UHGV virus genome: UHGV-0200554
DNA length: 64,000 nt
Direction: 5' to 3' (one strand)
Source of the DNA: a virus
The notes under the pieces were generated by a model. That model had not been told where the DNA came from, made no database searches, and was given only the letters and a program-made list of their open reading frames with translations. Of the stretch, positions 52,059 through 56,693 are shown piece by piece. Position numbers and translations under genes: made by a program. Every line of letters begins with the position of its first letter. The stretch's first letter is position 1.

Positions 52059-52134
52059 GCCCCGTTAGTTCAAATGGAAGAACAGTGGCCTTCTAAGCCA
52101 TAGGTTACAGGTTCGAGTCCTGTACGGGGTGCCA
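52059..52134 (+). tRNA. tRNA-Arg (anticodon UCU)
   Basis: Hand-folded cloverleaf: 7-bp acceptor, GTTC/GAAC D-stem, anticodon loop CTTCTAA, T-loop TTCGAGT, encoded CCA. Confidence 0.85.
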
Positions 52135-52178
52135 ACACTTTTAACCAAAACACTAATCATTTAAAGGAACTTAGTAAT

Positions 52179-52445
52179 ATGTATACATTAAAAATCGTAG
52201 AACGTGTAATGCCAGAAGGTGAACCGGAAGATACCAACATTCCATCTAAACCGTATCTTCGTGAGTCATACTATGACATGAATAAAAACACAGATGTTAT
52301 CTTCTATGAACCAAATCAGGAAGGTATCATCGCTGTGGTAATGGATGGTGAACAGAAGGTCTACATTTATGATGACACTTCTGCTTACCTGATGAATGAA
52401 AACGCTGTTACAGTACGTATCATTCATCGTGTTCAGTTCAACTAA
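52179..52445 (+). CDS. hypothetical protein (88 aa)
   Basis: RBS aaagga upstream of ATG. Confidence 0.55.
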   Translation: MYTLKIVERVMPEGEPEDTNIPSKPYLRESYYDMNKNTDVIFYEPNQEGIIAVVMDGEQKVYIYDDTSAYLMNENAVTVRIIHRVQFN

Positions 52446-52566
52446 GGTGGTTTCAGTTCATAATCAGTTTCATTGATACATCTCCTTTCATTGGTTTATA
52501 AGTTTTAACCCGCCCCGTTGACTGAAATGGTCACGGGGTTTTTTATTTGTATGTTCTGGAGGTTTC

Positions 52567-52968
52567 GTGCCAGCAGTACTTGCATTCCTGATAAAATATA
52601 AGCGCGTGATAAAATGGACTATCGCGGCTGTCTTACTGGTTGTAGCCTGCGCTGGAGTGCACAGTTGGTACAACACCCAGATACAAAATGCCTACAACGA
52701 AGGGGTCGCTGTAACAGAGCAGAAATGGGATAAACTGATGATGCAGCAGAAGCTACAGGCCAACCAGACGAAGTTGGAACACGCTTACGAAGTCAGAGAG
52801 CTTGAGCAAAAGCTGGCTAACATGCAGAACGCCATGAACGCTCCTGGAGCTTTTGGTGGGGCTACACAACAGCAGTTCCAGTCATCTCCAGAAGGGCAAC
52901 AGAACCGGATCCCAGATAAAGTGATCGATATCTACAACGAAAGTATTAACTCGGAGGTGCAGCAATGA
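52567..52968 (+). CDS. i-spanin-like protein (Rz-like; 133 aa)
   Basis: GTG start after ggagg; N-terminal TM then Gln/Glu-rich helical region; overlaps next gene by 4 nt. Confidence 0.5.
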   Translation: MPAVLAFLIKYKRVIKWTIAAVLLVVACAGVHSWYNTQIQNAYNEGVAVTEQKWDKLMMQQKLQANQTKLEHAYEVRELEQKLANMQNAMNAPGAFGGATQQQFQSSPEGQQNRIPDKVIDIYNESINSEVQQ

Positions 52969-53261
52969 GGTGGTTACTTGCATTAGCGATTGCACTCACG
53001 TTTTCTATGGCCCTGGTAGGTTGTAGCTCACCTAAAAGTACGCCAGTTACAGTTGCACCGCAGAAAGTTGAACAACTTGCTGTAGAGCCTCCTGCGGCAG
53101 CTATGATCCCACCAGCAATAGCTATCCCCTTGGTGAAAGGTGCACCAGATGCGGATAACTCTGCAATTATGAGGCAGAACAATCTCTCCTGTAGCAATGA
53201 TCGTGCCAAATTAATCATCTTGCAGGATTATGTAAAATCTTTATTCAATAAGGAGAATTAA
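52965..53261 (+). CDS. o-spanin-like lipoprotein (Rz1-like; 98 aa)
   Basis: Signal peptide with lipobox LVGC; proline-rich mature part. Confidence 0.5.
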   Translation: MRWLLALAIALTFSMALVGCSSPKSTPVTVAPQKVEQLAVEPPAAAMIPPAIAIPLVKGAPDADNSAIMRQNNLSCSNDRAKLIILQDYVKSLFNKEN

Positions 53262-54374
53262 TGGCTAAAATGTATGGCCCATGCTCCCGTAAACAACAAA
53301 TGATTCTGGAAAATGATGCCGACTTCCTGATCATTGGTGGGGCAGCGGGTTGTTTGTCAATGCGACATGAGGTGATGACACCTAACGGGTGGATCAGAAT
53401 ATCGGAATGGGATGGTCAAGATATCCTCCAGTTTGATAAAGAAACTGGTAAGGCCATGTTTATCCAGCCTGAAGAGTTTGTTAAGCTGGAATGCGACAAA
53501 CTAACCAGGATTGTGCAGGATGGTATTTGTCAGGAATTATCCGACGAGCACACAGTTCTGTACGTCCCAGAAGACGGAACAGCTTACGGTACACTTAATT
53601 TCGGAGAAGTGGCTGAACAGTATGCTAACGGTGAGTTGGCAATGCGTATGCAGACCACGTTTGTGAACATGGGTGGTACTGGCCTTGGCATTTCTGACGA
53701 AGAGCTGAAAGAAAGGGCAAGATATTACAAATTCACAGATGAGTGGTATAATTGTGATCGTCGTCAGTTGTTGCAGATCTGGTATGAGATTTACCTGAAC
53801 GGTAATGATCCCCATGCCTACGTTGTTCCAACGAAAGAACAGGCTGATTTCTTGCAATACCTCGGATCATCTTTAGGTTTCAACGCACAGATCTTCTTCG
53901 AAGAAGGTTACAAAGTTGTGTTCTCTAATGAACGTGCAGGTACGATTGCTCTTAATAACGATGCAACGTTCGAAGAGTTTGAGCCGGAAGATGGTTACAA
54001 ATATTGTTTTGCTACCACAACAGGCTATTTTATCACCAGACTGGAAAACTGCATTGCAGTGACTGGTAACAGTGGTAAATCCTTTCTTCTACAGCTTCTC
54101 CCACTAAAGATGATAGATGACCCCAACACTTCTGTGGTGATGTTCCGTAGGACAACTCCACAACTGGAAGGTGAAGGTGGTCTGTGGCCTAAAGCACTGA
54201 GTGTGTATCTGGATCTTCCTGAGTACATGAGGCCGAAATTCAGAGAGAAAGACCATAAGTTTACTTTTCCATATTATGATGCAAAGACGGGCAAATGGAA
54301 TAAGAAAAGAGACGGAGCAGTAATCAAATACTGCCATATGGAATACGTCCAAGATAAGCTGAATCATCAAGGGT
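53261..54374 (+). CDS. Terminase large subunit, exon 1 (contains in-frame intein)
   Basis: Walker A GGAAG..SGKS split by intein; ORF ends at TAA at proposed 5' splice site. Confidence 0.7.
53351..54070 (+). mobile_element. Intein (240 aa) inserted in terminase P-loop
   Basis: Starts CLSMRH (Cys1), block-B-like DEHTV, ends TGN followed by Ser; removal restores GGAAGSGKS. Confidence 0.65.
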
Positions 54375-54901
54375 AAACAAACCTGCCCTTCGTGCCTAAT
54401 TCGGTGAAACTCCTTGACAAAAGGACAATACCGAGCTACGGTTAAAGGATTAGTTGAAACCGAGTGTAACGACTATCCCCGATGAGTGTAGGGGAGTAGA
54501 ATCACAAGCGATTGGTGATCCAAACGGCACGCCAAGGAGGGAAGAGCTAGTCTGTTCCACATGGTAACATGTGGCGGGTGTCTTAGCACACCGCGTCGGA
54601 GTAGCGATCCGGCGGGACAAAAGTGGAATATACTTTAATATGTTTTGATGAGGGTTAACTGGTAGCTCTCGTAAAACCTCCCTAATTGCGGGGAAATCTT
54701 TACTATTGACACCACCAACCTATTATGGTAACATAATATTGGCTTCGGAGAAATACCGAAGGTATGGTAATAGCGTGTTGATTTAGATAATCCGCAGCGA
54801 AGCATCCTGATAGGATGTGTGCTCAACGACTATCGCTTACGGGCGTTAGGGCCAAGCGGCTGGGGAAACCCACAGTCTTTTAAGACTGCCGAAACGGGAG
54901 G

Positions 54902-55195
54902 ATGGGAATGTGTAAAACTAAAAAATGTGTAGATTGCCAGAGAGTCCTACCTCTTGAGGATTTCTTTTTATCTTCTAAGAGTAATGATGGGTACTCTGGT
55001 ACATGCAAGGAATGCTATATGTACTACAGAAAGAATGGATCTCGTAGAAACAAGGATATGGTTAAGAGAGATGATGCAGCAGCGTTTATTCAAGATTTGC
55101 TAGAGAAAGGTGAGCTTTTTGAATGCAAATCTTGTCATAAAAGTATGCTCGCTGACAATTTTACACAAAACGTGATTATGGTAGGGTATATCTAG
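54902..55195 (+). CDS. Intron-encoded homing endonuclease, N-terminal zinc-finger part
   Basis: CxxC pairs (CVDCQ, CKEC, CKSC); ends 18 nt before catalytic ORF in another frame. Confidence 0.55.
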   Translation: MGMCKTKKCVDCQRVLPLEDFFLSSKSNDGYSGTCKECYMYYRKNGSRRNKDMVKRDDAAAFIQDLLEKGELFECKSCHKSMLADNFTQNVIMVGYI

Positions 55196-55212
55196 TCACG
55201 GGCAGGTGTAAA

Positions 55213-55497
55213 ATGTGTGAGAAGTTCTATCAGCTTGAGAAGAAATTTCACATAACAAAAGACGAATATTTTCGTCTACTCTCAGATCAAGATTATAAAT
55301 GTGCCATTTGCGGGATATCACTTGATGAGTATAGGTCGCAAGGGTACAGAGATTTCTTTAGTGTTGATCATGACCATAAGACTGGCGCTGTAAGAGGTTT
55401 GCTTTGTGATAAGTGTAACAGAGCTTTAGGTTTTTTCCAGGAGGATGAGGAAACTCTTCTTAAAGCGGCAGAGTATTTACACACTCATAAGATATAG
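55213..55497 (+). CDS. Intron-encoded Endonuclease VII-type homing endonuclease, catalytic part
   Basis: VDHDHKTGAVRGLLCDKCNRALG matches Endo VII motif; stop overlaps intron S element. Confidence 0.7.
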   Translation: MCEKFYQLEKKFHITKDEYFRLLSDQDYKCAICGISLDEYRSQGYRDFFSVDHDHKTGAVRGLLCDKCNRALGFFQEDEETLLKAAEYLHTHKI

Positions 55498-55581
55498 TCT
55501 GGTCTGCATGGAGACATGCAGCTGCCACATGGTGGCGGGGCAAGAGTAGCGACCTTGCCCGAACACAAACGACACAGTTCG

Positions 55582-56693
55582 ATTGGGAGCAAATCGACTA
55601 CCTGATTTCTCGTATGAGGTCGAAATCGAAATACTCTTCACGGATGGTGATCAGCTGTAACCCGGATTCTGAACACTATTTAGCCAAACTGGTTCGTTGG
55701 TGGCTTGACGACGAGGGCTACCCAGATGAAAGCAAGTGTGGCGTTAAGCGCTATTTCATCCGTAGGGATGGGGAATTTATCTTCGGCGATACGCCAGAAG
55801 AGTTGATCGAGAAGTATACCTATGTTAACGGCAAAGGTGTTGAGATAATCCCAAAACCACTCTCTATCGCTTTTATCGGTGCAACAATCCACGATAACCC
55901 CATCTGCTTGCGTGATAACCCAGAATATCTTGCATTCCTGGAAGGTCTGCCAGAGCTGGAAAAAGCACAACTCCTCTACGGTAACTGGTTCGCTAAGCCT
56001 GAAGGTGCAAACTATTTCAGTCGCACATTCTTGAAAGATGCGGATCATGTCCCCCTCGGAGCAGTTTCTGTAAGAGCATGGGATAAAGCTGGTACAGAAC
56101 GTACCTCTGGCAACAAATTCCCCGACTATACAGCCAGTATCAAGGTCAGTAAGGATAGTGATGGTTACTACTACATCTCCGGTGACTATTGCCCTGAAAA
56201 CGTAGATGATGGCAGATATTCTACGGGCTTGCACGGTAAGTTCTGCAAGAAAGCTGGGGAACGTGATGTTATTATCAAGAAACAGGCAGAGTTTGATGGT
56301 GAGGACTGCGTAATTGTCTTCTCTGTGGACCCCGGTCAGGCAGGTAAGAGTGAGTTTCTTACTTCATCTCGTAAACTTCTTGCCGGAGGGTTCAGGGTAG
56401 AAGAAGACCCAATGCCGTCTAACAAATCAAAACTCACCCGTTTCTCCCCGTTTGCCAACCTTGCCCAACAAGGGATGGTGCGGCTTGTCCGGTCAAGTTT
56501 CGACCCGGATACACTGGAAGCATTTTTGACAGAGCTGGAGAAATTTAACGGCGAACGGTCAACCTTTAGCCGTAAAGATGATTGGGCTGACTCCATTGCT
56601 TCTGCAATTAACTACCTTGAAAAAGAGGAAGTTGCTATGCCATGTGTTATTCCGAAGATTGTTTCACCCTCTATGTATAAGAGGATGATTTAA
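55582..56693 (+). CDS. Terminase large subunit, exon 2 (nuclease domain)
   Basis: In-frame continuation from proposed 3' splice site; followed by UUCG-hairpin terminator. Confidence 0.6.

Follow-up and report, generated by a model that had tools for sequence, protein, structure and literature searches.

The stretch of DNA analysed here, hereafter the window, comprises 64,000 nucleotides (nt) of UHGV virus genome UHGV-0200554 and carries, on its plus strand, a large terminase subunit (TerL) gene that extends from 53261 to 56693 and is interrupted at three places: by an in-frame insert in the Walker A motif, by a first group I intron, and, after an exon of just 32 nt, by a second group I intron that contains an endonuclease VII (Endo VII)-type homing endonuclease gene (Table 1). 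With a probability of about 0.88, we read the window as belonging to an unclassified rV5-like (Vequintavirinae-related) phage in which these three interruptions of TerL, one intein and two introns, are self-removing elements. Nucleotide identity to rV5-like Vequintavirinae is 74-82% in TerL and the structural genes, and no close record to this phage was found in the GenBank phage set.

Anatomy of the terminase gene

The gene opens with an open reading frame (ORF) of 371 amino acids (aa; 53261..54376), closed by a TAA stop at 54374-54376, and a downstream ORF (55614..56693) matches the C-terminal part of the Pfam domain Terminase_6N plus Terminase_6C. The first-pass annotation, made from the letters and a list of ORFs, had placed this stop correctly, had recognized the gene as TerL, and had described an insert of 240 codons that begins with Cys directly after GGAAG and ends with Asn directly before SGKS; the insert lies exactly there, and orthologues without it read GGAAGSGKSF.

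In-silico removal of both introns yields one ORF of 2268 nt encoding a 755-aa precursor of 86.3 kDa, which divides into an intein of 27.6 kDa and an extein of 515 aa and 58.7 kDa (computed masses). The spliced 515-aa product covers positions 1-211 of the 215-position Terminase_6N profile in one stretch (78.2 bits), matches Terminase_6C with 33.3 bits, and matches PHROG 979 with an E-value of 1e-199; among the unspliced ORFs, that of exon 3 reaches 30.1 bits against Terminase_6N and that of exon 1 has no score. A contiguous ATPase domain (Walker A, Walker B, coupling motif) with a nuclease domain is obtained only after in-silico removal of all three elements. Exon 3 contributes the remainder of the ATPase domain, including the SCNP coupling motif, and an RNase H-like nuclease domain up to the stop codon at 56691-56693, and its first in-frame start comes only at residue 14 (ATG 55614). 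The 32-nt exon between the two separate introns, which the first-pass annotation missed, encodes (L)EYTLICFDEG and thereby the Walker B motif LICFDE (54635-54652).

The exact junctions could be fixed because the TerL genes of two related sequences, L006 and L008, and of rV5-like phages are continuous across the sites; an alignment with intein-less and intron-less terminases was among the checks that the first-pass annotation had proposed. The IMG/VR contig L006, in which the insert is present and the introns are absent, encodes a 755-aa product that is collinear with the predicted precursor of the window and 93.5% identical to it; it reads an unbroken ...NHQGLEYTLICFDEGTQFEWSQ... over both intron sites, and the empty intron site of this type is TTTGATGAAGGG^ACACAATTT (here and below, ^ marks a junction). 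L008 has neither insert nor intron and encodes a 515-aa TerL with GGAAGSGKSF. In the rV5-like phage WalterGehring, TerL is annotated as a joined coding sequence (CDS) across the second site only, with GGAAGSGKSF uninterrupted and the intron placed as NHQGLEYTMVCFDEG^intron^TQFEWEQ. The protein segment NHQGLEYT(L/M)(I/V)CFDEGTQF is continuous in L006, L008 and the rV5-like phages. The predicted spliced junctions of the window are CAAGGGT^TGGAATAT (54374/54624) and GAGGGT^ACACAGTT (54655/55572), and the orthologues place the start of exon 3 at 55572, not around 55582, where the terminase frame had been thought to resume, nor at 55614.

Table 1. Positions in the window of the TerL gene, its intervening elements and the features upstream
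Feature	Position	Strand	Description
TerL exon 1	53261-54374	+	From the ORF list; collinear with intron-less L006 and rV5-like TerL
N-extein, residues 1-30	53261-53350		Part of exon 1
Intein	53351-54070	+	240 codons within Walker A, GAAG^SGKS; ...IIGGAAG^CLSMRH...CIAVTGN^SGKSF
C-extein, residues 271-371			Part of exon 1, with the first base of a Leu codon
Intron 1	54375-54623	+	249 nt, group I, no ORF
TerL exon 2	54624-54655	+	32-nt mini-exon, TG GAA TAT ACT TTA ATA TGT TTT GAT GAG GGT
Intron 2	54656-55571	+	916 nt, group I, Endo VII gene inside the P8 loop
Endo VII-type homing endonuclease gene	54902..55497	+	Split into two parts
Zinc-finger-like part	54902..55195		First part of the endonuclease gene
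Catalytic part	55213..55497		Second part of the endonuclease gene; DHDHKTGAVRGLLCDKCN
TerL exon 3	55572-56693	+	Starts TQFDWEQIDYLISRMRSKS; Terminase_6N and Terminase_6C; collinear with relatives in tblastn
Intron 1, P1 to P6	P1 54369-74/54385-90; P3 54391-96/54526-31; P4 54401-06/54429-34; P5 54411-15/54421-25; P6 54435-43/54458-65
Intron 1, P7 to P9.2	P7 54469-75/54548-53; P7.1 54476-80/54491-95; P7.2 54501-05/54515-19; P8 54532-34/54539-41; P9 54557-63/54568-74; P9.1 about 54575-94; P9.2 54595-600/54608-13		Bulged C54470 in P7; minimal P8
Intron 2, P1 to P6	P1 54650-55/54665-70; P3 54677-82/54896-901; P4 54687-92/54791-96; P5 54696-99/54785-88; P6 54797-54822		Large P5 extension 54700-54784, containing GGTATGGTAATAG (54761-54773)
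Intron 2, P7 to P9.2	P7 54826-32/55495-500; P7.1 54834-45; P7.2 54861-88; P8 54909-16/55476-83; P9 55504-10/55515-21; P9.1 55524-36; P9.2 55538-44/55554-60
Two overlapping ORFs	52567-52968, 52965-53261	+	Directly upstream of TerL; stop of the second overlaps ATG 53261
tRNA gene	52059-52131	+	Rfam 68.3 bits; 1.1 kb upstream of TerL

The two group I introns and the endonuclease gene

A local search with the Rfam group I intron model (RF00028) in E-value mode, a check that the first-pass annotation had proposed, returned two matches, at 54328-54574 (38.0 bits, E-value 1e-7) and at 54620-55521 (47.9 bits, E-value 1e-10); over the whole 64-kb window the respective E-values were 4e-6 and 4e-9. E-values of such local searches depend on the search space. 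The 1.2 kb that follow the first stop do contain the expected group I core elements, including the previously recognized segment in the P5 extension of intron 2, but they form two complete core sets within 54328-55521 and not one. The two introns share the blocks GTAGAATCA..CAAGCGAT, the P9 hairpin and the GTAGCGA loop of P9.2, and they align to each other with a score of 116, compared with 55 +/- 11 for shuffled sequence. Each has a U-G wobble pair at its 5' splice site (U54374-G54385 in intron 1, U54655-G54665 in intron 2) and a terminal (omega) G, at 54623 and 55571, respectively. Both have P7.1 and P7.2, as is usual for phage introns of subgroup IA, and we infer from this that they are IA-like. 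A search of the window for further introns, inteins or endonuclease copies found none.

Both folds are supported by covariation, assessed against controls in which the pairing partners were slid. For intron 1, the alignment (A5) consisted of the window, L013 and Escherichia phage TH18, and the register of P9.1 was best given by RNAalifold; 95.2% of cells in the canonical structure are paired versus 35-44% in the slid controls, with 9 compensatory pairs versus 0-1. For intron 2, six sequences were compared, namely those of the window, L005 and L007, two rV5-like copies, and the copy in phage Av-05 as far as its 5' part, as the Av-05 record is rearranged; here 97.1% of cells are paired versus 33-44%, with 20 compensatory pairs versus 0-3. 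P3 and P7 are 100% paired in the alignments of both introns.

Homologues of intron 1 occur in L013, L025, L026 and TH18, and a pattern scan of IMG/VR for additional copies returned the L013 contig only. The TH18 homologue follows HQG, is 82% identical, and scores 34.1 bits against RF00028. Alternative 3' splice sites of intron 1 after G54611 or G54614 were ruled out by the orthologue alignment. The insertion point is shifted by 1 nt relative to the codons between relatives, GGG T^TG in the window (54374/54624), L013 and L026 versus GGT^TTG in TH18 (L003, 3736/3982); both placements retain an AGGGU/GCCCUU P1 and restore ...HQGL..., so that the insertion point has apparently slid by one base.

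Intron 2 corresponds to the TerL intron of rV5 and other vequintaviruses (BASEL phages, e.g. WalterGehring, MZ501111): it lies at the same site after FDEG, carries the same Endo VII-type gene in P8, and has the same P1 and terminal G. The rV5-like phages differ in having no intein and no intron 1 and in having an intact 197-aa endonuclease ORF. Identity of intron 2 to the rV5-like copies is 89%, and its P7.1/P7.2 module is of the L007/Av-05 type, not of the rV5 type. ORF-less homologues with a short P8 hairpin in place of the gene are found at the same site in L007 (344 nt), L005 (233 nt; RF00028 81.7 bits) and Av-05. The P1 that Rfam draws for intron 2, a hairpin within exon 2, was dropped; GAGGGU/GCUCUC was preferred because this pairing spans the splice site and does not vary among the homologues.

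The first-pass annotation had proposed a single group I intron of 1.2 kb, from 54375 to about 55581, with exon 1 joined directly to exon 3. The 5' contexts of the two introns are indeed similar (AAGGGU^ and GAGGGU^), 5 of 6 positions of GCUCUC, the intron 2 guide, could pair with the end of exon 1, and skipping between tandem group I introns has been documented in the TerL of SIOphi and in Twort orf142 (PMC11878797), so that such a join is possible as a by-product. As the principal reading, however, a single intron is extremely improbable: removal of 54375-55571 in one piece, joining 54374 to 55572, shifts the frame, ends the product after 400 aa and loses Walker B, whereas LEYT(L/M)(I/V)CFDEG is present between the two points in all orthologues. 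In addition to the two complete ribozyme cores, relatives carry the introns separately, the first alone in L013, L025 and TH18 and the second alone in rV5-like phages, L005 and L007, with the sites 11 codons apart. Two independent introns flanking the 32-nt exon remain our reading of the segment.

Within intron 2, the two ORFs previously reported as a zinc-finger part and an Endo VII part both exist, and the latter (55213..55497) matches the Pfam family Endonuclease_7 (PF02945) with 80.4 bits (cutoff 23.6) and PHROG endonuclease VII families with an E-value of 3.6e-33; they are, however, pieces of one gene broken by the loss of a single T. The run at 55159-55162 has four T in the window and five in the intact rV5-like ORFs, and restoring one T yields a full-length ORF with 77 bits against PF02945 and 90% nucleotide identity to the rV5-like ORF. 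The gene is tightly embedded in the ribozyme: the 3' strand of P3, GGGAGG (54896-901), doubles as its Shine-Dalgarno sequence, its second ATG (54908) lies within the 5' strand of P8, and its TAG stop (55495-97) lies within the 3' strand of P7. The ORF is intact in L001, L002 and L010. L009 has six T (+1) in the same run, and L026 has five T there, with one extra base each in an A-run and a second T-run (at about 8199 and 8712). These three independent breaks fit decay of the endonuclease after fixation of the intron; all of them are homopolymer changes and could also be sequencing errors.

The intein and its P-loop site

The key residues expected of an intein are present in the insert: Cys1, block B S64-D-E-H67, block F Cys219 (position F:4), Thr238-Gly239-Asn240, and Ser at position +1 of the extein. 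The site is empty at exactly the same point in L008, L009, L010, L012 and rV5-like TerL. A protein search with the insert alone gave two near-identical matches only, and profile searches then reached 62 relatives. AlphaFold gave an unusable model from 3 sequences (predicted local distance difference test, pLDDT, 41.8) and a confident one from 61 (pLDDT 91.7; predicted template modelling score 0.89). Foldseek placed the latter next to inteins in the PDB, with PhoVMA (7qst, E-value 1.9e-7) and AceL NrdHF (6zgq, E-value 2.2e-7) first, followed by TliVMA, DnaE, PI-SceI and DnaB; the top 50 matches listed are inteins plus, lower down, a few bacterial intein-like and hedgehog Hint domains, at probabilities of 0.98-1.00. 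The predicted fold thus supports the original interpretation of the insert as an intein inside Walker A.

In an alignment of eight sequences reaching down to 30% identity (A3), C1, H67, the block F motif DG.KYCF with C219, R230 and T238-G239-N240 are invariant; in the alignment of 61 sequences (A4) no column is strictly invariant, but C1, H67, C219, R230, T238, G239 and N240 each reach at least 90% conservation. Either Ser or Cys occupies position +1 across the family, and the insertion site is GxxG^[S/C]GK[ST] in proteins as different as PhoH, guanylate and deoxynucleoside monophosphate (dNMP) kinases, IstB/DnaC, DnaA, Terminase_3, T2SSE and others. Inteins are frequent in terminases, and their insertions cluster in the P-loop (Novikova et al. 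2016, PMC4760082; PMC5050341), with P-loop inteins described in mycobacteriophage TerL, and non-His penultimate residues such as Gly described in phage inteins (Kelley et al. 2016, PMC5050341). The classic P-loop site lies between Lys and Thr/Ser of GK[ST], whereas the site in the window lies three residues upstream (GxxG^SGKS).

Residues about 106-205 of the intein are the remnant of a LAGLIDADG endonuclease. The same intein occurs at the same Walker A site in the Escherichia phages TH18, 18-1-2, 19-1-2 and 24-2-1 (ON075799 etc.) and in Av-05 (NC_025830), and neither the inteins nor the introns are annotated in these records. The TH18 intein has 329 aa with both LAGLIDADG halves and matches Pfam LAGLIDADG_3 weakly (E-value 0.068); compared with it and with the 329-aa version in protein P0005, the window intein is about 90 residues shorter and lacks the first LAGLIDADG motif, and the second motif is degenerate, IYLNGND versus LQVAVMADG ... 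LDEIFHWDGS in TH18 and P0005. Because the first motif is deleted and the second degenerate, the endonuclease is very probably dead. The intein of Av-05, at 241 aa, shares this LAGLIDADG deletion, and intron 1 is absent from Av-05. Most copies of the family (proteins P0008-P0064) carry a full LAGLIDADG domain, and a mini-intein of this family, 152 aa long, occurs in the TerL P0009.

The only significant sequence relative in the PDB is the AceL NrdHF-1-1 class 3 split intein (6zgq; PMC7891396), which the family profile (A3) found with an E-value of 3.3e-6 and a shallow alignment (A1) with 0.096. It shares with the window family Ser B:7, His B:10, a non-Trp hydrophobic residue at B:12, Cys F:4 and Thr G:5, and in neither of them is there a His at F:13 or G:6. 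AceL NrdHF, a split intein devoid of an endonuclease domain, starts with Ala (obligate class 3), carries a Met-Cys-Thr triplet, and resides in a ribonucleotide reductase (RNR)-related protein; unlike it, the window intein is contiguous, keeps Cys1 and retains an endonuclease remnant. A class 3 assignment is complicated by the retained Cys1 nucleophile and by the triplet, which is Val69-Cys219-Thr238 and not Trp-Cys-Thr, and the window intein may follow either the class 1 or the class 3 splicing route. As judged from its residues, the family appears to use class-3-like chemistry, and standard models miss it.

Splicing, spread among relatives and precedents

On our reading, the pre-mRNA of the gene would contain two independent IA-like ribozymes, each splicing alone with guanosine. 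The internal guides would pair with the exon ends (AAGGGU/GCCCUU in intron 1, GAGGGU/GCUCUC in intron 2), cleavage would follow the wobble U54374 and U54655, and ligation would follow the two terminal G residues, joining exon 1, the Walker B exon and exon 3 into the ORF of the precursor. Protein splicing by Cys1 and/or block-F Cys219, Asn240 and Ser+1 would then release the intein and restore GAAGSGKS in the 515-aa TerL. The elements themselves appear to have passed their mobile prime, with intron 1 devoid of an endonuclease, the Endo VII gene frameshifted and a LAGLIDADG half of the intein lost. TH18-type isolates form plaques with a sole TerL gene that contains the intein and intron 1, and therefore both elements must be removed efficiently in that lineage. 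TerL introns of the related Certrevirus CB7 splice, as demonstrated by reverse transcription PCR (PMC7344957).

Several observations weigh against this reading. Both introns score below the RF00028 gathering threshold of 50 bits, and for this reason a default Rfam scan of the window reported only a tRNA and neither intron; the covariation is drawn from few distinct sequences, three for intron 1 and six for intron 2. The P8 of intron 1 has just 2-3 base pairs (bp), further weakened in the window by an A-G mismatch, and its P10 is weak, at about 2 bp. The search of the insert against curated intein profiles, which the first-pass annotation had suggested, gave no match in Pfam or NCBIfam even at E<=10, and the intein lacks both the penultimate His (Gly239 instead) and the block F His. 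RNA and protein splicing of the window TerL are deduced from the DNA sequence. Finally, a 32-nt exon is prone to being skipped when the ribozymes on either side of it have nearly the same context at their 5' splice sites, and skipping would be lethal for the transcript because the 54374/55572 join yields a dead-end product.

If splicing failed at one or more sites, separate polypeptides might assemble into a terminase, as in Aeromonas phage Aeh1, where the pieces of NrdA split by mobE reportedly work together (cited in PMC7344957), or the intein might persist as a permanent inserted domain. In favor of this, each piece has a "terminase large subunit" CDS of its own in the GenBank records of TH18, APECc02 and Av-05, one intron-like insertion of CB7 is unspliced (PMC7344957), and the unusual penultimate residue of the intein fits. 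We nevertheless regard it as very unlikely, as exon 2 offers neither a start codon nor a ribosome-binding site in its 32 nt, exon 3 has no in-frame start in its first 13 codons, and the frames align only after exact ribozyme-type excision. Moreover, the ribozyme folds are kept by compensatory changes, a 240-aa domain in GAAG^SGKS would destroy the P-loop, and the catalytic residues of the intein are conserved across exteins as unlike as PhoH and DnaC. Removal of all three elements thus remains the preferred interpretation.

The TerL family contains four intron sites, after HQG, FDEG, I(G/S)ATI and RKDD, and relatives occupy them in different combinations. L008 has no element, L006 the intein only, and rV5-like phages, L009 and L010 intron 2 only; the intein is combined with an ORF-less intron 2 in L007, with an ORF-less intron 2 and an RKDD-site intron in L005, and with an RKDD-site intron in L011. 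L012 has an IGATI-site intron only, L013, L025 and TH18 have the intein, intron 1 and an IGATI-site intron, and the window and L026 have the intein and introns 1 and 2. TH18 therefore also has an intein and two introns but no mini-exon, because its second intron, with an HNH endonuclease, lies at another site, after ISATI; as only the window and L026 combine introns 1 and 2, the 32-nt exon is confined to them. The other occupied sites lie at 5195-5477 in L005 (RKDD, ORF-less, Rfam 72.4 bits), about 6012-6844 in L011 (RKDD, 834 nt), 3905-4887 in L012, 4027-5000 in L013 and about 4327-5311 in L003; both the I(G/S)ATI and the RKDD sites are empty in the window.

L026 is a 130-kb contig from a different assembly with an identical architecture and 96% identity. 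Its mismatches to the window number 4/249 in intron 1, 0/32 in exon 2 and 13/596 in the endonuclease gene, compared with 13/74 and 12/79 in the adjacent sequence of exons 1 and 3. Because the introns diverge less than the flanking exons and genes, both in this pair and between the window and rV5-like phages, the pattern fits a lateral spread of the introns, by recombination or by homing during co-infection, that postdates the divergence of the host genes; constraint on the ribozyme core explains part of the low divergence, not that of the endonuclease ORF. The mismatches in the exons are mostly spaced by 3 nt, a sign of purifying selection.

These comparisons also bear on whether the locus is dead or artefactual, either because TerL is decaying as a pseudogene of a defective element or because a metagenome assembly has joined intron-bearing alleles into a chimera. 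The frameshifted endonuclease gene would agree with decay, and Av-05 demonstrates that intron repeats can scramble assemblies of TerL. Against this stand three intact, in-frame exons whose precursor closely matches the uninterrupted L006 product, the codon-like spacing of the exon differences, the same architecture in the separate assembly L026, and intact portal, protease and capsid genes nearby; a dead or artefactual locus is accordingly most improbable in our estimate, and we retain a presumably functional, three-element TerL gene as the explanation.

In Av-05 (L004 and L019; NC_025830.1, 1-3792 and 118500-120938), the TerL segment of aa about 383-488 lies on the opposite strand, with breakpoints within P9 of two TerL introns, a near-palindromic hairpin (CTGCATGG..CATGCAG), and the record is about 15 kb shorter than those of relatives. 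A misassembly via intron repeats is more likely than a real inversion, which would kill TerL. Upstream of the window TerL, the two overlapping ORFs occupy the place of the i-spanin and o-spanin genes annotated in WalterGehring, and relatives have a small tRNA cluster where the window has its tRNA gene. Identity between the window and L026 is 73-86% over these spanin-like genes (52700-53300), 94-99% over 52100-52700 and 92-97% in the intein; the region around the terminase start has the pattern of a recombination mosaic.

Each of the three elements is of a known kind, and precedents for all three are published. The classic case combining RNA-level and protein-level elements is the ribonucleotide reductase genes of the Bacillus prophage SPbeta, in which Lazarevic and colleagues reportedly found group I introns and an intein in 1998; that system differs in gene and in intein family. 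The first-pass annotation called the arrangement striking, which is overstated in view of the rV5 TerL intron with its homing endonuclease (Kropinski et al. 2013, PMC3606486, where an earlier TerL intron, of LL-H, is cited), terminase inteins (PMC4760082, PMC5050341) and multi-intron terminases (PMC11878797); its observation stands with corrections, and its interpretation is partly supported. The TerL, DNA polymerase and RNR genes of Bastillevirinae and Twortvirinae (PMC11878797) are similar in having 2-3 group I introns per terminase gene and a tiny inter-intron exon, and they differ in that these are unrelated phages of Gram-positive hosts with other endonuclease families and no intein in the same gene. 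No description of an intein in a Vequintavirinae terminase was found in the literature searched. What is new is that, in one stack, Walker A is split at the protein level and Walker B is placed on a 32-nt exon, together with the combinatorial polymorphism among close relatives and an intein family unseen by standard models. A wider reading, which we offer tentatively and consider unlikely as a whole, would hold that this intein family is undescribed and widespread, targets a distinct P-loop position (GxxG^[S/C]GK[ST]) in unrelated nucleoside triphosphatases, and combines a class 1 Cys1 with an atypical class 3 signature (F:4 Cys, G:5 Thr, no F:13 or G:6 His), and that the block of intron 1, exon 2 and intron 2 moves between phages as a unit, the balance of splicing and skipping acting as a GTP-sensitive gate on terminase production.

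Automatic annotation would render such a gene as two or three "terminase" fragments with stray ORFs and would miss the Walker B exon. The nearest solved relative of the intein, a class 3 split intein, splices fast and serves as a tool in protein engineering. Close relatives, several of them from one metagenome, display almost every mix of one intein and four intron sites, with endonuclease genes at different stages of decay, and this makes the TerL genes of these phages a compact natural setting in which to follow how homing elements are gained, become fixed, degenerate and are lost, how adjacent introns interfere with each other, and whether late gene expression is gated by introns and inteins.

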